Origin: Alloascoidea hylecoeti
Lineage: Eukaryota
DNA length: 48,717 nt
Direction of reading: 5' to 3'
Assembly: GCA_001600815.1 (NCBI GenBank)
Contig: BCKZ01000001.1
Span: 2,080,804 to 2,129,520, forward strand
Below are positions 14,009 through 48,717 of this stretch, piece by piece. The notes beneath the pieces were generated by a model. That model searched no databases and was not told the origin of the DNA. It was given only the letters and a program-made list of their open reading frames with translations. Position numbers and translations under genes: made by a program. Position 1 is the first letter of the stretch, and each line of letters starts with the position of its first letter.

Positions 14009-14719
14009 ATAATTTTTATAGCTGGGTAAATTTTAATTCATAATTGTTATGATGGTCACCTGATGTGATATTACTAATCTGCAGGTATGTAGGTTACTAA
14101 TATTTTCTAACATGTCCACCAATACCTCCACATTGTCTACAATGAGTCTACATTTCCAATCCTTGTTCTGTCAAGATTGCCTAAATATAGGTCGTTCTGA
14201 ATCTGCTTGTGTAAAAATATAGATGAAGACAATAAAGGTTCCGCGGCAGCCTGACAGCTTTAATTCGTGAGATAGTTACTGCGTATACGGTTATGGCCAT
14301 ATCTAGCAGAAAGAACCGTTCTCCTTCCGGTCAACAGTAGTCACAGAGCAATGTAGTAGACCATACGCACGTGGTGTTGTAATCTTTTCGTTCTTTTCGT
14401 TCTTTTCATGGCCTTGGATATTTCCACAGATACCCATTTGTCGTAGATGTCTCCAGCAAGTATAAAGATAAAGATATTAATACAGCTTCATTATAATTAT
14501 CGATTGTGTTCCATTTTTGCAAGACTAATGAGAGATGAGATTTCATTTTGTTCCATAAACGCATAGAAACGTAGACTTAGCCACAGAATGTAATTAAAAT
14601 TGATGGCTGGGTTATTAATAGCTACGATTGTCATTGAATTATAATACTGTAATTCTTCAACTTTTTATTTACGACTTGGAAACCTCCTTCACCACCACAT
14701 TATCAATATCAGTATCAAC

Positions 14720-15343
14720 ATGGAACACACAGGGAAATCTATGGTAGTCGGAAATCGTCTCGTTTCTTTGTTTGAGATCATTTTAAGAGCGGTGATTTTC
14801 ATCTGCAGTGTTATTGCATTGGCCTTGATAGCAAAAACTGCAACTGAATTTGAGAGTTCGATAGTTAACTACGGGATCTTCACAGCCGTCTTCTCTCTAT
14901 TATTTGGTTCAATTTTTATGTTCTTAACTTACATTATTAGAGCAAATTCACTACAACATCCAATAATAAAATTATTGCTCGATGTATTAAATCTCATATT
15001 TACGTTCATCGCTGGTGTTTTCATTGCTGATTATTACAGATTTTCTTGTTCTGGCTACTTATATCAAAATAGAGTTGCATTCAAATGGGATAGTTCTGGT
15101 TGCAAAACTGCAAAAGCCTCATCCGCTTTCTTTTTATTTCTTGCAGTATTATATCTACTGACATCTATTGGTTCGGTTCATAGTGTTGCTAAAAACGGAA
15201 TGTTTTATAATGAAGGTAGAACTAATTTGAATGAGAATGAAAGCTATAGAGATAGAGATGCTGATAAGAGTATGACTCCCGGGAGTGGAAACGATACTAT
15301 CAATATAGTTCCTGCACCTAGGCCTAATTCCTATGAAGTTTAG
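14720..15343 (+). CDS. MARVEL-like four-TM membrane protein
   Basis: Four hydrophobic helices with MARVEL-like patterns: ILRAVIFICSVIALAL, VNYGIFTAVFSLL, LDVLNLIFTFIAG, CKTAKASSAFFLF. Confidence 0.8.
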   Translation: MEHTGKSMVVGNRLVSLFEIILRAVIFICSVIALALIAKTATEFESSIVNYGIFTAVFSLLFGSIFMFLTYIIRANSLQHPIIKLLLDVLNLIFTFIAGVFIADYYRFSCSGYLYQNRVAFKWDSSGCKTAKASSAFFLFLAVLYLLTSIGSVHSVAKNGMFYNEGRTNLNENESYRDRDADKSMTPGSGNDTINIVPAPRPNSYEV

Positions 15344-15620: not shown

Positions 15621-17881
15621 ATGAGTTATAACCATTCTTATTCCAGAACAAATGATTCACCATTTGATATTTCAAAATTAAATAATACTAATGTTAATGA
15701 TATTGATGAGGTAGCAATTGATAATTATAGATTATCTAAATTTGGAAAACTTTTATTATGGATTAATATAATTGTAAAGATTTTCCAATATCTAATATCA
15801 ATTATATTGATTGGTTTGTTATCAAAGATTATAACAGAGATGTCTTCATCGATGGTAACTTATTGGTATGTTTTTAATATAAAATTCATATAGCTGTTTG
15901 ATATATTAATATTAATTGAATGTATTTTTTAAAATATAGTTTAGTCATTTCTTGTTGGTCTATATTAATACCATTGTTTTGTTTCATTTATAGTTTAATG
16001 TCAAAAAACTATTTTCCAATAGTATCTTTAATCCGAGATTCATTAACATGTTTCTTAGCATTAATAGCAGGAATTTTATTACTTCTATATTATAAAAATA
16101 AAACATCAGACGGGATAACATACTATAATTCAACTTCTGGAACTTCAACTAATCAATATTCGTGTTATTATAAAAATGAATGGATTGTATGTTCTGTTGG
16201 AATTGGTAAAGCAGCTGCAATCTTTTTTTTAATTTTAACTGGATTGTTTTTAATTTCGGTCTTCATTGATATTTATGATGTAAATAAAAAAGGTTATTTG
16301 AATGATAAACATGGGAAAAAAAAAAAACACCATCATAATACTGATCTTGAATTTGGATCTACAGCTGGAGATCAGAATCAACCTCAAAATCAAATTACAT
16401 ACGATCAATTGTTACCAGATAACAATATTAGTGAACCACCTGCTCCACAAATGGAATGGAATATGAACTTCATCTCAGATGCACCGCCAAATAAGCATAA
16501 AAAGAAACAGAAACATAATAACAATAGTAATACTAATAATATTGGTACCACGGAAATCGATGATCATGATCAATTACAATCACAAAACAATGATACCCAC
16601 GAAGTTCAATTGCATCAACCAGAGATCACTTATAGTCCGCAAAATAATAATTATACAGGCCAATATTATACAAGACCGAGTCCAGAGTTAAAACTATCTG
16701 CTATACCTACCTCTAAACCAGTACCTCAAGTTCAAATACAGCAACCATCAATTACCTATAGCCCACAGACTAATAATTATACAGGCCACTATTATACAAG
16801 ACCAAGTCCAATTTTAGAACCATCTTTTATACCTATATCAAAACCAGGACCTCAAATCAAAGTTCAGATGTATAATAAACCTACGGTACCAATTGATGGT
16901 AATCATAAAAATGAACATCATCAAACGTTAGATACTTATCATGTCAATCAAGTAAGGCCATCTATTCCATATCCATTAGCTCATGAACATGGTAAGTATC
17001 AATCACAACAAGCTCATATTACTTCAAGTTTAAATGGGAATGGTATTGATGTTGCTGGGTTGATTAGCCCGATTGAGAATTTAAATATTCCTGATCAATC
17101 GCTTAAGCCACATAAATATTCCAATCATAATCAAGATTATAATAGAGATAACAAAAATAAAAAGAATAAACAAACAAGCTCTGCTTTGTCTGCTTCTATT
17201 CCTGTTGATGATCTAAAACCTTCAAGAAAGCATTCTGACCATTCTAAACCATCTGGCACAGAACAAACACCAACAATAGCTACTCCACATTCAAATCCCT
17301 CAAACTCCCATACTCATTATGATCACCAAAATCGTCACAGAAAAAGTCATATTCACCATCATCATAATTCAACATCAACACCAATAACTGACCCAAGCAC
17401 CTCTGATAAACCACCTTCGACTCCAATTACTAAGCCTAAGCTTAAGCCCCACGTTTCAATTGATACAGTACCAACTATTATATCATCAACAAAAATAAAA
17501 CCAAATGAAAAAAACAAGAAAGATCAACACAAATCACATAAGTCGCATAAGTCACATAAATCACATAAATCACATAAAGTAAGTGAGTCGTATAAGCCGC
17601 ATAAATCAGATAAAATACAAGAAAATACTAATACAGACCCTACTAAAAATCCCAATTATAAGCACAAGCCAATTGCAACGACTAAACCAATAATTCCAGT
17701 TTCAATTTTAAAACCAACAAAAACAGTAGCAACCGCTACAGGAACAATGACACCATATCCGGTTATTGATAACTATATTATAAATAGTGATGATTCGGAT
17801 TCTCCTCCAAGCGTATTTTATTTTCCTGAATTGGGTATAAGAGAATTTAAAGGAGAAGTAAAGGAGACGATATTAATATGA
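15621..17881 (+). CDS. Second MARVEL-like membrane protein with a long His/Pro/Lys-rich low-complexity tail
   Basis: Exon 1 (15621-15865), a phase-2 intron (15866-15939, GTATGT...TAG) and exon 2 (15940-17881) join two ORF-track entries. The four-TM pattern matches the upstream gene (SSMVTYCLVIS, RDSLTCFLALIAG, GKAAAIFFLI). Confidence 0.75.
16601..16852 (+). repeat. 126-bp (42-aa) in-frame tandem duplication
   Basis: QPEITYSPQNNNYTGQYYTRPSP and QPSITYSPQTNNYTGHYYTRPSP; TTATACAGGCC occurs at 16651 and 16777. Confidence 0.9.
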
Positions 17882-18469: not shown

Positions 18470-18754
18470 TTAGATACCGAGATTTGTATCATTCTGATAA
18501 TCATCATAAACTTTATCCCAATGATTTTCCTCCTTTTTCGATTTTGAAGAATTTAAGTCTGCACCTGAACCCACTTGATTTTGTGAGTTGGTTGTTTGTT
18601 TGCTGTCCAGTTTATCGATCTTCGCTTCTAGATCCGTTACCTTGTTAGATAATCCCTTAACCTCATTAGATAAGCTTTTAACTGTATTGATCAGGTCGCT
18701 GACTGCTGATTCAGTAGCGTCTGCTACAGGTTTGGTTTGGGATTTTGGTTCCAT
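18470..18754 (-). CDS. Small hypothetical coiled-coil protein (94 aa)
   Basis: ATG in AAAAATGG context, a TATA-like element about 145 bp upstream, and a clean heptad (LINTVKSLSNEVKGLSNKVTDLEAKIDKL). No family recognised. Confidence 0.55.
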   Translation of the reverse strand: MEPKSQTKPVADATESAVSDLINTVKSLSNEVKGLSNKVTDLEAKIDKLDSKQTTNSQNQVGSGADLNSSKSKKEENHWDKVYDDYQNDTNLGI

Positions 18755-19378
18755 TTTTGATAAATATTAGATATTTATAATTAAGTTTGTATATAATGTC
18801 TCTTTGTATTGTCTATGAATCTATCCCAATAGTTGTGGTAGTCCGGAGTTGTTCCAAAATCAAAAAGAAAGATCAATCAATAAACTTCAAAATTTATATA
18901 AAGTCCTTGTTATAATTTAATAAGTTACTTTTTCCACAAGAAAACAAAAGGAGAACTATATGTAGATCTAGAAAGTCACATGCTTCTTTTCAATACCACA
19001 ATCTGATTTTTAAATTTGTAGGCGCAGATACGATTGTGGAGTTTATTATGTTTATATTCGCTTCTTAACAATGGCCATTGAATCATTCTAAGGCTAAATT
19101 AGGGCACACCACGGAATATGGAACCGAAGATTTGGGAGTATTGCAATTGTTGATGAGCTCGAACTTTGAAAAGTCAACATATATTATACACTAAATAGTA
19201 ATTATAATACATATTATGCTTCATTGGTATTATATAAATTCTTATAGCAAATCATAATATAAAGCTATTATTATTCCAATTTAATTGATTATAATTTTGG
19301 AGTTTTTTAATTAGTATTTAAATTTTGTTTGATGGGCATTTAGCTTTTTTGTAATTGTAACCATAACTAGATATTCGT

Positions 19379-34500: not shown

Positions 34501-35267
34501 ATATGCTGTCATAAGAGGTCACGACCTTTGTTTTCCTTCATACAAAGTATTTTCCTACTTTAATAAAATTAATGGAAGTGTTAATCTGAAATTACTGAAT
34601 TGATATCCAATAGGCAGTGTTATTTGGGTGTACGAATGTCCAAGGAGACGAGCTCAAAAATCTATAATAATGTGTTGATAAAAAATTTATGCTAATTGAA
34701 TTAATCACTCGAATATAAAATTGTAGACACACTTACTGTTCATCAATTTACCAATCACAGTGTTCATATGTATAAGCTTTTATAGGAATTTTGTATGTTT
34801 AAAACTCATATAATAGAGAAGGTCTAGAACGAATCGGATTGTAAGTTACAAGGAATACAGCGATCGATCTTTTTTATATCATATTCCATTTAATTTCCAA
34901 ACCAAAGTCTAACAGTTAAATTATATTATACCACACGAAACAATATTATATTGCAATTGATATCGATATCCGTTTTGAAACTATACTATTATAAGGTATT
35001 TTCTTGATGTCAAGGGGTTTGAATCATGGGATAGAAGATTAAGAGCAGATGAATGTCCATCTTATATAAGTTAGTTATACTAAGCTGTCTATTTAAAACG
35101 AGGCTCAAATGATGTGACAAATCCTCAAGTCAATCAAATTAACGTTAGTAATGTTACCTTACACCCAGCCACTCAACTGGAAAAAATATAAATTTCACCA
35201 AACCTTTTTAAGTTTCATTTTCCTCCATTTTTTTTTTAGCTATATAAGATTCTTTCTGGATTATATA

Positions 35268-37232
35268 ATGGGACAAAAACGTAAATTGGATGATTCTATA
35301 GATAAGAACGAGAGTCCACAAAACTTCAAGAGAAAAACAATGGATACTTCATCTTACAAGAATAGGCAATCTTTTTGGTCAAGTTATTACAGAGCTAATG
35401 GGAAGCATGCAGACGATATTAAGAACGACAATGGAGATTCAGTATTAGGACAACGTATGTTGAGATCAGTTGATCTTGAGAAGTTAGAATATGCGGTCGG
35501 CCAAGTTTTTCGTGGCATAAAAACCATTTTGAAACTAGCCCCTACAGAGGAAACAGTTGAAAAAATTGTTAATAATCGTGATTCGAACCCTGATATGGCT
35601 GAGTTGGTTAAACGGTCTAAAACTGTATTAGCTGTAAGGTTGAGAAAACTATACAATGAAGGTAAAATGGAATTATTTGATGAACTGTTGAGGTCTATTG
35701 AGCTTGGAGACTTATATGATTTAAAGCAGTTGGAGACAGGCACAATTAAGCTTGACACACTAAAGCTTGATGTGATTAATCTTTTACCAAATATTGATTC
35801 TCCTATTCAGTATAATGGTAATGAAGTAGAATCTACCGACCAACTGGCTGACATTATCCAAGCTCATATGTTCTCAACTAATTCTCAAATGCAATTGACT
35901 GACAAATTTCAAAGCGAGGAAAATGCAAATACTAGTGCAAATGAACTTGAAAATAATAAACAAATAACACCATCTGATGATGATACCGAGAAAAAAGATA
36001 TCAATACAGATATATCTAACATTGAAGATAATTCATGGCCCCCAAAACTACCTGAAATCAAGGATGTAAAAATTCGAAATTTAGTATTTACACACAAATC
36101 CTATGTTAATGATAAAGTTAATCTAACAAATACAGAAAAAGTCAAATTAAGTAATGAACGTCTTGAATTTCTTGGTGATTCTATTCTTAATCATTTAACA
36201 ACATTAATTGTATATCAAAGATTCCCTGATGTCGATGAAGGTATATTAACCATAACTAGATCAAGTATTGTTAATAATAAAACTCTTATACAATGGGCAC
36301 ATTTATACGGATTTGAACATCGAATGAGATCAGCCTTGAGTCTTGATCAAGACCATTATAATACAAAAATTTATGCAGATTTGATAGAATCATATATCGG
36401 AGGATTATTTCTTGAAGATAAATCGTATGATAGAATTCAACCATGGTTGTATAAATTGATGGAACCGTTACTTCAAATAAATGTAACGAAAGTACCGATT
36501 GCTAAAGGTGTACAATCATCTATAGAAAGACAGGCAAAGAATGAACTTTATGCATTAATTGGTTGTGCAAAATATACACCAACTTACAAAACTATCAGTG
36601 AAGAAAATACTGATACCGGAAAACTTTTTGAAGTAGGTGTTTATATCGAAGATGAATGCTTAGGTATGGGGAAAGGAACAAATTTAAAAGAAGCTGGGTT
36701 ATCCGCGGCAGAGGATGCTCTAAAAAATCACGAATTATTAGAGAAGTATGCTGCGCTTAGAAGATCAACAAGTAAAACTGAATCAGTTATTGCAAGGAGT
36801 AAAAATGATGCCACGAACTCAAATGTATCAAAAAAGAAAAGTAGTCAAAGTCTATCAAACAATTCAAATCTAGAAGATGTTAACAATAATAAAGAGAGCG
36901 TAGAAGGAAATGAATATGAAAATTTGAATCAAATTAGACAGATAGATGGTGCTCCAAAACCTTTAGCAACTCAAATTCTTGATATTCAAATTGATCTGAA
37001 TGCAAAGAATATTATTTATAGTGTATTAGCAAAGTACAATTTAACACCAAAATATATTTGTATACCAATCAATTCATCAATGAAGAGAATGATGATAACA
37101 GCAAATGATTTAATATTAGGTATTGGTGAAGCAAGTACCAAGAAAAAGGGAGAAAGAAAAGCCGCAATGAACGCTTTGAATAATAAAGAAATGCTAGAAT
37201 ATTTGCGCACTACTTATACTTCAAAAAATTGA
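35268..37232 (+). CDS. Budding-yeast RNase III with Dcr1 (non-canonical Dicer) architecture: NTD + one RNase III + two dsRBDs
   Basis: NTD LEKLEYAVGQV...LAVRLRKL; WPPKLPEI; signature NERLEFLGDS and YADLIESYIGGL; dsRBD1 AKNELYALIG...GKGTNLKEAGLSAAEDAL; dsRBD2 AKNIIYSVL...GIGEASTKKKGERKAAMNAL. The start is placed at ATG 35268 (MGQKRK). DCR1 versus RNT1 orthology is unresolved. Confidence 0.9.
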   Translation: MGQKRKLDDSIDKNESPQNFKRKTMDTSSYKNRQSFWSSYYRANGKHADDIKNDNGDSVLGQRMLRSVDLEKLEYAVGQVFRGIKTILKLAPTEETVEKIVNNRDSNPDMAELVKRSKTVLAVRLRKLYNEGKMELFDELLRSIELGDLYDLKQLETGTIKLDTLKLDVINLLPNIDSPIQYNGNEVESTDQLADIIQAHMFSTNSQMQLTDKFQSEENANTSANELENNKQITPSDDDTEKKDINTDISNIEDNSWPPKLPEIKDVKIRNLVFTHKSYVNDKVNLTNTEKVKLSNERLEFLGDSILNHLTTLIVYQRFPDVDEGILTITRSSIVNNKTLIQWAHLYGFEHRMRSALSLDQDHYNTKIYADLIESYIGGLFLEDKSYDRIQPWLYKLMEPLLQINVTKVPIAKGVQSSIERQAKNELYALIGCAKYTPTYKTISEENTDTGKLFEVGVYIEDECLGMGKGTNLKEAGLSAAEDALKNHELLEKYAALRRSTSKTESVIARSKNDATNSNVSKKKSSQSLSNNSNLEDVNNNKESVEGNEYENLNQIRQIDGAPKPLATQILDIQIDLNAKNIIYSVLAKYNLTPKYICIPINSSMKRMMITANDLILGIGEASTKKKGERKAAMNALNNKEMLEYLRTTYTSKN

Positions 37233-39269: not shown

Positions 39270-41490
39270 TGCAATGTTTATTTTCTCTGTAGGTTAAAGA
39301 AGTGAAAAGAATAATTATAAGGAGTGACAAACTTGATTTTATAAAAAGAGGAGAAGAAGAAGAAACTTTTGGTAGTATATATAAGATTTGAAGGTAAGGC
39401 TTGCCTTTGGAACTTAATTAGGGTTGATGTTTTATAATTATAATTAACAGCACATTCTTTAGTATCTGTGTTGTTACGTGTAGCCGTGAACAATATGATG
39501 TAACAGTAACTAAACCTCCAAACACGGAATAACTAAGCTGACCGGTATATGCACAATGCAGGAACTTGCCTCCTCAAACTTTAATTATAATATCAAGATT
39601 AACTTTTCAGGCACCAAATTTGTTTACAATTACGGGGAATTTTAAATGTAAATCGTTGACCGTCATCGCAACAACTACTTCAGCTCTAAGCCCAACCAGC
39701 AAACTTCATGAAGCCAATGTCACCCCTTCATGAATGTAATGCCATCTTTTTCTCTGAGCCTTGGTTCAGGTTTTTGAGTCATGATCATTGTTCATTCAGG
39801 CACGCTTTCTTAGATGTTATACTTGTAAGTATGCAATATAAGCTGAATTTAATGATATTGATGCAATAAATTTATAGCTAATTATATTAGTACTAGTTAA
39901 AAGCATTATATTAACCTATTATTATGAGACAATCTAATATATCTGGAATGTAAGGATTGTTTGTAATTGTATTCATAAATAACTAACTAAGCTCTTACAT
40001 AAAAATACTGATTTTATTTTTTAAAGTCTTCCTCGAATTAGATTCTTAAAAAAAACTTGAATGGTATTTGTTAATATCATCGATATCCTATTTTATAATT
40101 AATTAGAATTTTGAAGATGTATACATTTTGAAGACCAACGAAACAGACTGAAAAATTTAATTTGTAATTAGGTAGAAGTAATATATCGATATCTGTTTCT
40201 TAATATATTGAACCCAATATGTTAATTGCATCTTTTGCCTCTCATAGCTCAGCCCTAATTAGGTTTCTCGAGTTTAATTATGGTTAACTGAGAATTCGAT
40301 AATTATAAACTTGGCCCTGCCAAAACTATCAAAAATATCTGATGCTTTTTAATCTCAAACGTTTATCATATCCTTTAAAACTCTAACTTGTTAGAAAATG
40401 ACATAATAACTTTATCAAAATCAACATCATGATACATATACTGGCACAAACTACATTATCAACAAATATGTTAATAAATATGTAAAAAATTGCTCGCTAA
40501 GTGTACTGACCATCATCTTATTGGTTAGAAATTCCTGATTATAAAACTTACAATTAGAATTTTTTGATCTAAATAGACCAGAAGCCCTATATATAAAAAT
40601 AATATTATTTATTGGAACTGACATTGTTTCATATATAACCCCAAATATAACCATATATATGTCATGATAATTATAACGAAGTTATGATAGGCAACCTACT
40701 AGGCACTGGCATCAATGTAAGTTGAAATTATAAGCAATCAATTAGAAGAAAGTTATTCGCGATTTTTTCAAATTCACACAGTTTAACTTATAGATGTTAG
40801 CTACATGTATATATATAATTATAAATCTTATAGGGTTAATATATTTTTAGGTCTTATATCATGTTATATATATTGTAACATATATACAATTTATAAATTT
40901 AAATACTGATATTGATATTGTAAATTTCTCTGGATATACAATATAGGAAATTGATTATAACCTCGATATACGACTCGATGGCCAACTTTTGTGGAACATT
41001 AATTAATTACATAAATATACCTATATTGCAATTGACGATCATTATAGTACTCTCCGGATCCAAATGTAAAGCCTCGGTAAGTAACTACAATCTATTGCCC
41101 CGAAAATAAATTTAGAGGCAGATAGCAGTTGCATACATTTATAGTATACTGTTCATCAGATATAAATATTAAAGTGCCTCAAGTGTGCCATATGATATAG
41201 CAATATAAATACTCATTAGATAAGGGATATATGGCGGTCTCACCATAGAAATTGTGTTGGGCAGACAAAATCAAATATTCCTGGCTTGTAAGTAAAACAA
41301 CAGCGTATAACCTTACTGTATTAGATTGATTGCAATTGTTCCTTTTATACATATATTATATTGGACTTGTTCTTTCAACCCGACGAGCCTCCCCATGGGT
41401 TTCATGGTTTCATTTTAATGTTTAATTATATATCTTCCGATTTATAAGTAGTACAGCGATGTCATGCCGCTTATTAGTGACCTGTATACT

Positions 41491-41746
41491 CTTGATTCTG
41501 GTGTAGAAGCTTATGGCTCCACGAAGGAGATTTTATCACATATTTATAGGAATTTTGATGTCAATTCTTGGAAGAAAACAACGATGTTGAAGTCTGGGTC
41601 AGAAATCCAAAGGTGAAGGAAAAGTCAATCTTGATGTTATTTTGAAAGATTTGAGAACACTATTTAGACAAATTAGAGATGAAAAGATTAATTGTCCCGA
41701 TTCCGAAAATAATTATATTTCAGACTTTCTGATAACAGAGAAGTGA
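41491..41746 (+). mobile_element. Possible decayed Ty1/copia gag fragment
   Basis: Two frameshifted segments, STKEILSHIYRNF and KVNLDVILKDLRTLFRQIRDEKINCPD, loosely resemble copia gag helices. They form a coding-like island in AT-rich DNA. Confidence 0.3.
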
Positions 41747-43098
41747 ATAAAATTATATGTAAAATTATATTTACGGGATATTCTTTTTTTTAAAAAAAAT
41801 AAAAGTTACTATTACTTAGTACTAGTGTATTTATCTCAATTATATATAAACCTATCTACTTTAAATTATTAAAAAGGTTAAAGATCAATTATATTTAAGA
41901 GAAAGTCAGTAGTACTGATCTGCTTAAATAGTAGAGTACTTGGATTGAAGCTAGGTTAGGTAATGACAAAATCCAGATAATAACAATAGCAAAGCTTCTA
42001 TAATTCTTTCACCATTATGAAGAAATTCTGCGGCTGAAATGTAATATGTATTCATTCAGTTTCATGAAAGCTCCGAACATAGCTAAATTCTAGATAAATA
42101 TACATGAGATCGAGATTCATATAGATACAAATATCGATACATATGATGATTATAAATTGAACAATCGGAGTTAGGTATTTTTACCAGAAAGGTTATCTTA
42201 ATGCGACTATGAAAGGTGTTTTATACGAAGTTATGGAGCTCGAGTCTCTCACATAATCGGAAGACAAATCACGTTAACTATTAGATTCAATGTTTTGTCA
42301 AATTAATTTCAAATTGAATATGCTATAGGATTATAATTAATTAGTTTTTTTTTTTTACTTTGATACTAAGCTCGTATAATTAAATACATTTATGTTTTGA
42401 ATGCTATAGCTATATTACTAATATTAGTATTTATAAATTTATATAAACTAAGACTTTTAGTATATAATACATCATATATATTATGATGATAACCCAATTA
42501 AACCCATAGCTCTATATCTATTGCATATAATAAGACCACCTCGACATTTCGGATTTTTTCGGATCCTTTTACATAATAATATATATAATAAGAATATTTA
42601 CTAAACCTGGGTAACTACATAGGCGATTGCAGTTCCTATTGCATATAATGGTATGTTTAGGTATAAGGTACTTACTGTATATATAATCAATCGTCATCAA
42701 TAATATATATACCTTATATTATAAGACTGACACCTGCACCATACATGTGTCATATCATGATCAATAGAAATTAATTATCATTAATTATCGATAAGAGTTA
42801 ATACTCTTTTTCATTACTTCATTCACAATGAAGCTAGAATAAGGTATAAGTACATATTAACTATAGAAACCTATTGGTGAGAAATATGTAAGATACATAC
42901 ATTTGGAGAAGGGGCAAATGTAGTAATTAGCCAACTCTTTGCTGCCTTGAAAGTAAAGCCGCCAAATAACCCCATCTGGTTGCTAATTAATTTTGTACCT
43001 AATTGATTACCCGAATATCACAACACCAACATTTTACTTACTACATAAAGTTTTAAACTTTTTTTCATAAAAAACAATAAAATAAAAGAACAATAAAA

Positions 43099-43746
43099 AG
43101 TGAGGTATTCGGAAACTTTTTTTTTACCAAGAAGGATCGTCATATTAACTGTATTATTTAATAGTGGGTGCCTATAAATATGTCTAAGAATTAAGCAAAA
43201 AGAAGCAATCTGATGTGTACCGTTTCTTACATCGTTGCTGGGAATATCGTCAATTTAATGTCATCCATAGAGCTTCTAGATCATCTCGTCCTGATAAGGT
43301 TCGCCGAAAGGATTTGCCGTGTTTCGTGTTCGAGTCCGTCGAGGTAGTAGAAAGAGACCAAAGGACGCTACAAATGGTAAGCCAACTAATCAAGGTGTTT
43401 CTCAGCTGAAATATCAGAAATCTCTTCAATTAACTGCAGAGAAACGTGATGGGCGTGAAGCATACAACTCAATTGTACTAAACTCATACTGGGCTAACCA
43501 AGACTTTACATATATAGATACTTTGAAGTTATTCTACTTGATCCACAGCATAAGGCCATCAGAAGGGATGCTAGATACAATTGGATCGCTAACCCAGTTC
43601 CTGAACACAGAGAACAAAGAGGTCTTATATCTCTAGGCAAGAAGAGGAGAGGTATCAAGAAAGGACATCGTCACACAAACACAAAGGCAGGTAGGAGACA
43701 CACTTGGAAGAAAAACAATACATTGAGTTTGTGGAGATATCGTTAA
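43099..43746 (+). pseudogene. RPL15: 60S ribosomal protein eL15 pseudogene retaining a start-codon intron
   Basis: A(43099), intron 43100-43164 (GTGAGG...TATTAAC...TAG), then TG GGT GCC TAT AAA gives MGAYKYV* (TAA 43185-43187). It continues KKQSDV, WEYRQ, RVRVRRG, NSYW, YFEVIL, and NTLSLWRYR* (43746), with two frameshifts and small deletions. Confidence 0.96.
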
Positions 43747-44116
43747 TAAAATACTCTTTAATGCTTAATTAATATTCCAATTTGTAAATTTAAATAATAT
43801 AATTCAGCCATAATGATATTCAATCATTGACAGAGACGGATAAATTATAGATGTAAGAGTGTTATTAGAACTCTAATAGCGTATCTATACACAACGCTCC
43901 TGAAATTTATGAGACACATTTAGATTTAGCTATACATGTAGTATCTATTGCCGTTAATACAACGGTCCCTGAATTGCAACTATTTTGAGACTTGTTCTAT
44001 AAAAACAAGACAATTGAAACAATTACAACAACATCCAAACAAGTTAAGGTAGATAACCAAATATCAAATCTGTTTGAATGAGTATTAATTATTGTTATTT
44101 ATCACACGATAAAGCA

Positions 44117-44129
44117 TCACGTGTGACCC
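44117..44129. promoter_or_regulatory. TCACGTG (Cbf1 consensus) upstream of ADE16/17
   Basis: TCACGTGTGACCC about 90 bp before the ATG. Confidence 0.6.
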
Positions 44130-44212
44130 CCAAAAACAAGTTTTAAAAAGACGATCTTTCTTGCTATAATTGTTGCTTCATAGTGCCTCGAAGTCTTCCT
44201 TCTCACAATCAA

Positions 44213-46177
44213 ATGTCTGGAGCTGAGAATCGAAAGAAAATTGCGATCTTGTCAGTTTATGACAAAACTGGGTTACTAGATCTGGCAAAAGGATTAGTCA
44301 AAAACAATGTTCGAATCCTTGCCTCTGGAGGAACAGCACGCTTAGTGAGAGATGCAGGCTTTCCAGTTGAGTAAGTAAGAATTTTAAGAATATTCAGGTA
44401 TTTCAAATGTCGAGAGACTGATTTGTAACTGGTATTTGAGAATTCCAATCAAATTGAGTACGGATTAAGCTTATCTCTTTGTTTTCGGTTGTGAAAAGAA
44501 TCAAATCAAATCTACGTATATTAATCACTAACACCCTTCTTTAAACTATATAGAGATGTCAGCACCATCACACACGCCCCTGAAATGCTTGCTGGAAGAG
44601 TAAAGACCCTTCATCCTGCAATTCATGCCGGAATCTTGGCTAGAAATATTGAGTCAGATGAGAAGGATCTTGCCGATCAACATATTGAAAAAGTAGATTT
44701 TGTTGTATGCAATTTGTACCCATTCAAGGAGACCATATCCAAAATTAATGTTACCATTGATGAGGCTGTCGAAGTAATTGATATTGGTGGTGTAACGTTG
44801 CTCAGAGCAGCTGCTAAGAATCATAGTCGTGTTACCATTTTGTCTGACCCAAAAGATTACCCAACTTTTTTAGAGGAATTAGATAAGGGAGAAATCTCTG
44901 AAAAGTCTCGGGAGATATTAGCTTTGAAAGCATTTGAACACACTGCTAATTATGATGTAGCAATTTCAGATTTCTTCAGAAAACGATATGCCGAGAGTAT
45001 TTCACAACTACCTTTACGATATGGTGCAAACCCACACCAAAAACCTGCCCAGGCATATGTCACAGATGGTACTTTACCCTTTAGGGTATTATCAGGATCT
45101 CCTGGTTATATAAATTTATTAGATGCTTTAAATTCATGGCCTTTGGTAAAAGAATTGAGTGCTTCTTTAAATCTCCCAGCTGCTGCCTCTTTTAAGCATG
45201 TTTCGCCTGCAGGAGCAGCTGTTGGAATTCCATTATCTGAGGCAGAAAAAAAAGCTTACTTTGTTGATAAAGAAGCGTTTTTATCACCATTAGCAAGTGC
45301 TTATGCACGAGCCAGAGGTGCTGATAGAATGAGTAGTTTTGGTGATTGGATTGCACTGTCGAATATTGTTGACGTTTCCACCGCTCGGATAATTTCGAAA
45401 GAAGTTAGCGATGGTGTCATTGCTCCTGGTTATGAACCAGATGCATTGAATATTTTGAAAAGAAAGAAGAACGGTAGATATTCTATACTTCAAATTGATC
45501 CATTATATAATCCAGAACCTTATGAATCTCGACAAGTTTATGGAATCACACTCTCTCAGAAAAGAAATGATGCCATTATAAACTCAGCGTCTTTCACTGA
45601 AATAATTTCACAAAATAGAGATCTAACAGACAATGCAATAATTGATTTGACAGTAGCAACAATAGCTCTAAAGTACACACAATCAAATTCTGTATGCTAT
45701 GCTAAAAATGGAATGGTGATAGGTTTGGGTGCTGGCCAACAATCAAGAATTCATTGTACTCGTTTAGCAGGAGACAAAGCAGATAATTGGTGGTTGCGCC
45801 AAAACCCTCGTGTTTTGGAATTTAAATGGGCTAAAGGAACCAAAAGATCAGACAAGAGTAATGCAATTGACTTATTTGTTACCGACCAAATTCCAAAGGA
45901 AGAGCCTGAAAAAAGTGAGTATGAAAATAAATTCGCGAAAGTGCCTGAACCTTTTACTAGTGAAGAACGACAGGGGTGGTTATCAAAGCTTGATTTTGTT
46001 TCAATTTCCTCTGATGCCTTTTTCCCCTTTCCCGACAATATTTACCGGGCTGTTAAGAGTGGAGTAAAATATGTCGCAGCGCCATCAGGGTCAATTCAGG
46101 ATAAATCTGTCTTGGCCGCTGCAGATTCTTTTGGTCTTGTTTATTTGGAGAACAACATTAGACTTTTCCATCATTAA
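44213..46177 (+). CDS. ADE17: Bifunctional AICAR transformylase / IMP cyclohydrolase (ADE16/ADE17)
   Basis: Exon 1 is 44213-44370, the intron 44371-44553 (GTAAGT...CACTAAC...TAG) and exon 2 44554-46177. Motifs: [52 protein letters not shown]. Confidence 0.97.
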
Positions 46178-46738
46178 GATCACAGACTTTTGAACAGAAT
46201 TTATAAGTACCTAGAAATCGGTTCTGCTTTCATCTACATAAATTTGCCTTATATCTATTTATTATTGTTAACTGGTGTTATCGCATTGTTTATATCTGCT
46301 CGTTCTTTTTAATTCAAAACTCTCTTCTTTTTGTGATATATTGGATATATAACTGTGTTAAGTATAAAATTATTACTGGCGATATAATGATTGCAATAAT
46401 AATTGCCATACGTATATCATTTTAATGTGTAATATTTGTAGTATGCATAGTACTGTGATTGGTTATATCTCGTTTATAAGGTTATATTGTCAACTATCAT
46501 ACAAAATAATAAAAGATACTATGGTATTATAAATAAGGTAGAACTTGTATAATTATATGGGTATGAAAATAAACATCCTGACATCACACGTGTTTTTAAC
46601 CTTTCATATGTAAAATAATTCAATTTCTGTTACTATACCATTACGCAATTACTATTGTTTTTGAATATGCCGGCAGACAGGTAAAATGAAATCTAATCAT
46701 CAAGTAGTATGACATCTTATACCGATAGAAGGCAGAAC

Positions 46739-48166: not shown

Positions 48167-48247
48167 CTTTTTCTATAAAGGATCTGAATATCAATCCTTT
48201 TTTTAAAAAACTATCAAACAGTCAAAGCTTCAATTAATTGCAAAGAA

Positions 48248-48717
48248 ATGAGAATCAACTACTGCTTGACAGCTTTATTTGGACTTGCAAATATTGCACA
48301 CGTTTATTCGATTGATTGTCCTCCCGAACCATATTGTCCGGATTCAATTTGTGATAATGAAATAACCCTAGTTACTGCAGAACCTAGGTATCAATTTGGT
48401 CTCCTTGAGGGATTTAGTGATACTTATAATGTTGACTTNACTGATGTTGTTAAACCTTATAAGCCATCAGATGTTCTTATAATCTACTATACTTCAAATA
48501 TACATGAACAGGATGTTTTGTACAACAAATTGCTCGAAGTCGATAGAATTGGAAATGATACTGACCAATTTACGTTTACAGCTAAAATGGATACACTCGT
48601 TACACCTCCTCTTTTTGGTTACACATGTGTTGGACGCGTTTCTATTGTGGTTGTATATTGTGTTGATTGGGATCCCGTCTCTGGTCACTGTATAGCTGAT
48701 CATCAAGCTATTCACAA
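48248..48717 (+). CDS. Secreted/cell-surface protein, possibly a Flo11-domain adhesin (runs off the right edge)
   Basis: Open from ATG 48248 to the edge, with one N at 48439. Signal-like MRINYCLTALFGLANIAHVYS, a Cys-rich start, and LYNKLLEVDRIGNDTDQFTFT resembling Flo11 LYGYNENTYLIDNPTDFTAT. Missed by the ORF track. Confidence 0.7.
   Translation, partial: MRINYCLTALFGLANIAHVYSIDCPPEPYCPDSICDNEITLVTAEPRYQFGLLEGFSDTYNVDXTDVVKPYKPSDVLIIYYTSNIHEQDVLYNKLLEVDRIGNDTDQFTFTAKMDTLVTPPLFGYTCVGRVSIVVVYCVDWDPVSGHCIADHQAIH

Follow-up and report, generated by a model that had tools for sequence, protein, structure and literature searches.

The window analysed here, 48,717 nucleotides (nt) of contig BCKZ01000001.1 of Alloascoidea hylecoeti (positions 2,080,804 to 2,129,520, forward strand), carries a disabled copy of RPL15, the gene encoding ribosomal protein eL15, immediately upstream of an intact ADE16/17 gene. 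We consider it very probable that this RPL15 copy is an unprocessed pseudogene, resulting from an old duplication at the DNA level that also took in ADE16/17 and that is specific to this lineage, and that it died later, leaving the other RPL15 copy to supply eL15. The lesions, the start-codon intron that survives in the dead gene, the second copies of both genes and the conservation of the RPL15-ADE pair in other yeasts are described below, followed by the other histories that could have given rise to this locus.

The RPL15 copy in the window and its lesions

Three reading-frame pieces matched the eL15 family (PF00827, Ribosomal_L15e), jointly covering profile positions 8-187 (Table 1). A tblastn search with the 204-amino-acid yeast eL15 (P0121) recovered residues 1-203, spread over three frames; 150 of the 198 residues aligned are identical. 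The family profile is thus matched, but the single open frame of about 204 codons expected of a functional eL15 gene is absent. An earlier note on this DNA had reported a premature TAA, two frameshifts and deletions in RPL15, and we found all of them both in the sequence and by tblastn. Altogether, a TAA and two frameshifts disrupt the gene and 11 codons are wholly or partly missing, the four insertions and deletions (indels) adding up to -29 nt. In addition, 17 of the 97 columns that are invariant in 25 functional fungal eL15 proteins are altered in the window copy, 9 by replacement and 8 by deletion. The possibility that TAA is decoded as an amino acid in this organism was considered and rejected, the ADE16/17 frame itself ending at TAA after a conserved FHH.

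Table 1. Features of the RPL15-ADE16/17 segment, in window coordinates
Feature	Position	Strand	Evidence or detail
RPL15 exon 1 last base, A of split start codon	43099	+	A/GTGAGG at 43099/43100
RPL15 pseudogene intron, 65 nt, GTGAGG...TATTAAC...AATAG, inside start codon	43100-43164	+	sequence; splicing predicted
RPL15 (eL15) pseudogene exon 2, broken frame	43165-43746	+	PF00827 in three frames; tblastn
PF00827 piece 1	43188-43409	+	profile 8-49, E 7.3e-07
PF00827 piece 2	43298-43636	+	profile 56-126, E 2.6e-20
PF00827 piece 3	43498-43746	+	profile 126-187, E 4.3e-21
Premature TAA, codon 8 (consensus Glu)	43185-43187	+	YKYV(stop)EL vs YKYLEEL
6-nt in-frame deletion, two codons of R24-V25-R26	junction 43235/43236	+	FLHR--CWEY
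19-nt deletion, frameshift, codons 51-57 (LGYKAKQ, all invariant columns)	junction 43308/43309 (43307-43310)	+	tblastn
6-nt in-frame deletion (V75 P76)	junction 43360/43361	+	RKRP--KDAT
2-nt insertion (AT) in TATATA run, frameshift	43514-43515	+	frame +2 ends 43513; frame +1 resumes AGA TAC TTT at 43516
Original stop TAA	43744-43746	+	sequence
Spacer, 466 nt, RPL15 pseudogene to ADE16/17	43747-44212		no Pfam match in small ORFs
ADE16/17 (AICAR transformylase/IMP cyclohydrolase), intact, 593 amino acids	44213-46177	+	PF01808 + PF02142, Pfam E 2.9e-84
ADE16/17 exon 1	44213-44370	+	spliced translation
ADE16/17 intron, 183 nt, GTAAGT, CACTAAC, TATAG	44371-44553	+	sequence
ADE16/17 exon 2	44554-46177	+	spliced translation, one terminal stop
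ORF, open reading frame.

The codons GGT GCC TAT AAA (G2 A3 Y4 K5) of exon 2 have no ATG immediately 5' of them. Instead, the start codon is split A/TG by a predicted 65-nt intron, and here too the earlier note was borne out. Its branch-point-like motif, TATTAAC, deviates from the CACTAAC of the neighboring ADE16/17 intron. The sequence 3' of the pseudogene stop is TAATAAAATACTCTTTAATGC and contains no A tract. Because the intron and the parental neighbor are kept and no A tract follows the stop, the window copy is not a retrocopy, as the earlier note had argued, and a second RPL15 copy, described below, likewise appears to reach intron-like sequence at the same junction. The hallmarks of a processed pseudogene, namely, loss of the intron, a poly(A) tract and an unrelated site, were thus not found. 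What was found is what defines an unprocessed one: real lesions in a copy that retains the parental intron, as judged from its predicted splicing, and the parental genomic context.

Four public runs, named here X1 to X4, contain at least 91% of the sampled words of the window. X1 is a wood-decay metagenome, X2 and X3 are two runs of one sample, and X4 bears the same organism label as X2 and stems from a different sample and study. The window may derive from either X1 or X2, but from one of the two at the most; X4 represents independent sequencing. Contigs of these runs were compared with window positions 42600-46300 at a likeness cutoff of 80%, and partner copies were sought within this interval for the two genes RPL15 and ADE16/17. 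Over 43020-44339 or more, which includes the pseudogene, contigs of X1, X2 and X4 matched the window without a differing letter or a gap. This confirmed that the lesions are real in the DNA: because contigs of three public data sets match letter for letter, assembly error is excluded for practical purposes. The earlier note had named an intact RPL15 at this site in sequencing reads as the sign of such an error; the contigs of X1, X2 and X4 instead carry every lesion.

That the gene is intact in the organism and was broken by sequencing or assembly is therefore extremely improbable. The 2-nt insertion does lie in a TATATA run, a typical error site, but the contigs of the three data sets, coming from three studies, are identical and no variant contig was present at the lesions. 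Moreover, an error would have to account for five independent lesions and 9 replacements in invariant columns next to an ADE gene that is clean. We also regard it as very improbable that the locus is still expressed and used, be it as a noncoding decoy in a splicing feedback on RPL15 or as a gene recoded by readthrough and frameshifting. The GT..AG boundaries of the intron and the upstream region are kept, which speaks for such a role, but the seven invariant residues LGYKAKQ are deleted, both frameshifts and the stop would all need recoding, and the branch-point-like motif TATTAAC is degenerate.

Second copies of RPL15 and ADE16/17

Runs X1, X2 and X4 each hold one further contig with RPL15, matching the window at 43162-43235 (11 differences in 74 positions) and at 43518-43664 (25 in 147). 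The depth of this contig was close to that of the window's own contig in all three (60.7 versus 57.7 in X2, 8.2 versus 8.5 in X4 and 8.74 versus 10.1 in X1). That the depths agree in three data sets, including an environmental one, indicates that the second RPL15 copy belongs to the same genome. An allelic variant was considered as its source and rejected, the two sequences being 15-17% different and having unlike flanks.

Several features set the second copy apart from the pseudogene. The gap-free match stops at 43235, and between the two matched parts the second copy has 311 letters, compared to 282 in the window. An intact eL15 gene requires exactly 311 nt there (codons 25-127 plus 2 nt), so there is no net frame disturbance in that region of the second copy. 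The differences listed fall in 16 codons, 10 of which are synonymous and 6 of which are not. At three of the latter the second copy has H156, K157 and T165, all invariant in the 25 functional fungal eL15 proteins, where the window has P, E and I, and at a fourth it has the consensus R12. Past 43664, it goes on in frame as eL15 coding sequence. At the other end, 5' of 43162, it is unlike the window, reading ...CGACTAAC...TTATTC and then the shared TAG/TG. Since CGACTAAC is a branch-point-like motif about 25 nt before the TAG/TG junction, the second copy looks as if it has a branch point and a 3' splice site at the same start-codon junction. The 30-letter intron end of this copy gave 0 exact matches in metagenome contigs.

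Taken together, these data suggest that the second RPL15 copy is probably intact, with an intron at the same junction; that it is intact over its full length and expressed is what we infer from its sequence. eL15 is essential, and the earlier note had expected a functional RPL15 copy to exist elsewhere in the genome. A second contig at equal depth, with canonical spacing and consensus residues, is most readily taken as that copy.

The ADE16/17 gene next to the pseudogene shows every sign of function. After splicing it provides a full open frame that keeps 248 of the 252 columns invariant in 118 yeast homologues, and these homologues align to 44237-44371 and 44555-46174, on either side of the intron. 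This gene also has a second copy: a further contig, present at equal depth in X2 and X4, matches 45325-45447 (18 differences in 123 positions) and 45632-45933 (50 in 302). The NCBI protein P0002 is 85% identical to the window ADE protein (452 of 530 residues, no gaps), and since the end of the second contig after 45933 encodes VEIPTPLTSE, found in P0002, this protein is the product of the second ADE copy. Among the matches listed, the other homologues are 78-81% identical to the window copy, whose mean identity to the 118 yeast homologues is 79.4%.

A tree of 41 rows joins the two ADE copies as sisters (SH-aLRT 93) on a lineage of their own; a well-supported group of Geotrichum, Trichomonascus and Blastobotrys excludes both of them. 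The differences listed between the copies affect 21 codons and are all synonymous, indicating that both copies are under purifying selection and that their split is old. Within the matched parts, about half of the codons differ synonymously. To judge from these sites, which are heavily diverged and nearly saturated, and from the tree, the ADE16/17 duplication is old and lineage specific.

The two ADE copies have not evolved at the same rate. The branch leading to the window copy is about three times longer than that leading to the second copy (0.21 versus 0.074), and the window copy has 40 unique departures from the consensus of the 118 homologues, compared to 19 for the second copy (p = 0.006). 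In the 252 columns invariant among the 118 yeasts, the window copy has 4 changes (E to V, K to R, H to N and P to S) and the second copy has 1. The faster evolution of the window copy may reflect relaxed constraint or a diverging role. As a separate observation, 41 letters at 45314-45354 are identical in both ADE copies; this stretch has double depth in X2 (116.4), and the Logan contigs of both loci break there. It may be a conserved run or the trace of a past gene conversion.

The ancestral neighborhood and the history of the locus

Scanning metagenome contigs with P0002 as the protein guide yielded 80 fungal loci, among which the window organism was absent (best identity, 83-84%). Those with an ADE protein sharing 77.5% identity or more with P0002, 19 in all, we classed as yeast-like. 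In 16 of these 19, eL15 is encoded 0.5-2.7 kb upstream of ADE17 on the same strand. Two of the three yeast-like loci lacking eL15 have less than 600 nt of upstream sequence, and the third (L080) has 10 kb. Among the remaining 61, more distant fungal loci, eL15 was found near ADE17 in 0. In named genomes, the locus tags of ADE17 and eL15 are consecutive in Nakaseomyces glabratus (A03201, A03223) and Millerozyma farinosa (002361, 002360). The longest recorded contig measures 45,887 for either gene in Lipomyces japonicus and 37,381 for either gene in a Wickerhamomyces record, an agreement suggesting that they lie on one contig there as well. As these gene orders indicate, the RPL15-ADE pair is an old feature of budding yeasts and the pseudogene stands at the conserved site. 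The 16 of 19 loci and the named records thus agree with the earlier note, which had placed the dead gene at its ancestral locus beside ADE16/17.

One of the metagenome loci has an unusual eL15 of its own. In L007 (938-1266; contig coverage, 2.6), the eL15 gene upstream of ADE17 retains only residues 1-67 and 160-203, joined out of frame, while its codons are otherwise well kept. This is either a second breakage of RPL15 beside ADE16/17 or an assembly fault due to low coverage.

We propose the following history. RPL15 and ADE16/17 would each have been copied at the DNA level after the lineage had split from every other sampled yeast, most likely jointly as one block, and the RPL15 intron would have been copied along with its gene. 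Selection would have maintained both RPL15 copies for most of the period after the duplication. The window copy would then have been released fairly recently, after which a nonsense codon, four indels and substitutions of invariant residues would have accumulated in it, and eL15 would now come from the other copy. The ADE gene beside the pseudogene would be functional but faster evolving, the window locus being the weaker of the two duplicated loci. The duplication of both genes in a single event and the timing of the death are the parts of this history that we infer.

The late death is suggested by how little the pseudogene has decayed. It still agrees with the consensus at 151 of the 191 positions covered, and 9 of 89 covered invariant columns are replaced. 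In 25 positions it has a residue found in no functional eL15 row, compared to 0-13 for the functional rows themselves by leave-one-out among the 25 eL15 proteins. Nine replacements in 89 invariant codons would correspond, as a rough estimate, to a few per cent of neutral change per site, which points to a late release of the window copy and to both copies having been kept for most of the time since the duplication. This estimate gives no computed date, and codon bias or gene conversion between the paralogs would distort it; gene conversion between ribosomal protein paralogs is described in PMC6993855.

The earlier note had left two explanations side by side, one in which the window copy is one of two duplicated copies being fractionated and one in which RPL15 simply relocated. 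Because ADE16/17 also has a lineage-specific second copy, we favor fractionation over relocation. A related scenario of two separate events, in which RPL15 alone was copied to an unrelated place and the original then died while ADE16/17 was duplicated independently, is possible but doubtful in our view. In its favor, the second RPL15 contig, which in X2 extends 2.3 kb past the gene, nowhere matched the 5' half of ADE, and this hints weakly at second copies that are not neighbors. But the 5' half of the second ADE copy is matched by no contig at all, so the missing match carries little weight. Two separate events would also have given two adjacent genes exactly one extra copy each, at equal depth, and a similar nucleotide likeness (83-85% for the RPL15 pair and 83-85% for the ADE pair, the 80% cutoff setting the floor for both). 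A whole-genome duplication (WGD) or hybridization of this lineage, distinct from that of Saccharomyces and from three events in the Dipodascales, would make the locus one of two ancient homeologous regions; we consider this unlikely. Both neighbors do have second copies, the divergence is old, with synonymous sites nearly saturated, and the Logan contigs of X2 add up to 24.7 million letters, more than the 9-15 Mb that is typical of budding-yeast genomes. In addition, further ancient yeast duplications were not reported until 2025 (PMC12424943). Against a WGD or hybridization, the argument draws on two genes only and Pfam revealed no relics in the gap ORFs scanned. The screen of 400 species reported in PMC12424943 singles out only Dipodascales lineages besides the known event, and in the ADE tree Geotrichum joins Trichomonascus and Blastobotrys, away from the window organism.

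Several observations weigh against the history that we prefer, that of an old joint duplication followed by the late death of the window copy. The second RPL15 was seen as two aligned stretches and two 30-letter ends, about 220 of about 612 coding bases. Its protein was found neither by queries with the C terminus of the pseudogene (97 and 56 candidates) nor in ten eL15 clusters (40 members of each large one). Apart from a cross-match between WD40 proteins, the window shares no neighbors beyond RPL15-ADE with the loci of other yeasts, and Pfam revealed no other gene relics in the gaps of the window (116 small open reading frames [ORFs] from 18047 onward, of 162). As mentioned above, the second RPL15 contig matched nowhere on the 5' half of ADE. 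X4 is possibly the same strain resequenced, so that the letter-for-letter match of the contigs possibly covers one strain only. The ADE tree is that of a single gene, from a quick search, and the 118 ADE homologues were picked as best matches to the window copy, a choice that would bias against the window copy being the faster one.

The surrounding window and the significance of the locus

The window is AT rich, with 26-39% G+C in 2-kb steps, and its Pfam-annotated genes are of the budding-yeast type. They encode a zinc-cluster factor, an Eisosome1-domain protein, a CAF1B/HIR1-type WD40 protein, a CUE-domain protein, a SAP30-like protein, an F-box/WD40 protein, two MARVEL-domain proteins, a kinase, a protein of the adenosine/adenine deaminase family, an RNase III with two double-stranded-RNA (dsRNA)-binding motifs and the AICARFT/IMPCHase enzyme of ADE16/17. 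No tRNA genes were found in the window. The Pfam scan of the 116 gap ORFs gave a sole clear match, the upstream exon of the kinase gene; the six matches of ORF 18473-18766 were weak and fell short of the Pfam cutoffs. The RNase III is encoded by a 704-amino-acid ORF (35118-37232, + strand) with an Rnt1-type N-terminal domain (PF18497), one RNase III domain and the two dsRNA-binding motifs, which is the layout of the budding-yeast Dicer (Dcr1) rather than that of Rnt1. The two MARVEL-domain genes (14645-15343 and 15920-17881, + strand) adjoin each other on the same strand, the second being far longer (653 amino acids) with a weaker match, and it is possible that they are a tandem duplicate in which one copy has gained a new tail. 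The 3.8 kb 5' of the RPL15 pseudogene (39294-43098) hold no ORF of more than 84 amino acids and no Pfam match in small ORFs, which is unusually empty for this window. Finally, a 176-amino-acid open frame without a Pfam match (48188-48715, + strand) runs off the window end and holds the window's single N (48439).

The closest known counterpart is found in Saccharomyces cerevisiae, where RPL15A-ADE16 (YLR029C/028C) and RPL15B-ADE17 (YMR121C/120C) are adjacent pairs lying in ohnolog blocks of the yeast WGD; YMR121C is named RPL15B in its source record. RPL15A alone is essential in S. cerevisiae and RPL15B is dispensable. As in that species, the same two genes occur twice in the genome studied here, the RPL15-then-ADE order and strand are conserved at the window locus, and one RPL15 copy is the minor one, as RPL15B is there. 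Unlike in S. cerevisiae, the duplication appears from the ADE tree to be independent and lineage specific, and one RPL15 is dead and not merely weak; both copies also seem to have a start-codon intron. According to PMC7357790, RPL15B lacks the Rap1 and Fpr1 promoter binding typical of most ribosomal protein genes.

The window copy also resembles the unprocessed pseudogenes and relics of hemiascomycetes (Lafontaine and Dujon 2010, PMC2876123), which are syntenic disabled copies with stops and frameshifts that leave a functional paralog. In contrast to those relics, it derives from a ribosomal protein gene: in the main text of PMC2876123, "rpl" has 0 occurrences and "ribosomal protein" appears solely in a cited title. 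Ribosomal protein genes are usually retained in duplicate after yeast duplications, as stated in PMC12424943 and PMC6993855. The former, a 2025 preprint, describes three further ancient yeast genome duplications, all in the Dipodascales, with retained duplicates enriched in ribosomal proteins. Mammalian processed pseudogenes and the retroposed duplicates of fission yeast (PMC6993855) are likewise dead or extra copies of ribosomal protein genes, but the window copy differs from them in keeping its intron and the parental locus and in having no poly(A) tail. For Yarrowia lipolytica, PMC13309789 reports 42 start-codon introns, tied to high expression. As in those introns, the 5' splice site in the window follows directly after a base of the ATG; the difference is that the intron studied here belongs to another yeast lineage and persists in a dead gene, with a weakened branch-point-like motif.

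In itself, the finding is one of ordinary late fractionation of old duplicates. It provides a clean, datable case of a ribosomal protein duplicate dying long after duplication, in a class of genes that, according to PMC12424943 and PMC6993855, is the one most strongly retained by yeast genome duplications. A neighborhood doubled in baker's yeast has also been doubled independently in a distant yeast, and this provides a natural replicate in the question of which of two ribosomal gene duplicates persists. For annotation, the window locus must not be called the RPL15 of this organism. The genome is also flagged as a candidate for an unrecognized large-scale duplication, and it is on this possibility that the wider interest hinges. 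We think it improbable that an undescribed ancient WGD or hybridization, in an isolated lineage with a genome of about 25 Mb, underlies the RPL15-ADE16/17 pair and that the window belongs to the recessive subgenome. If this were true, that subgenome would have been caught while shedding even its ribosomal protein duplicates, a class preferentially kept after other yeast duplications.

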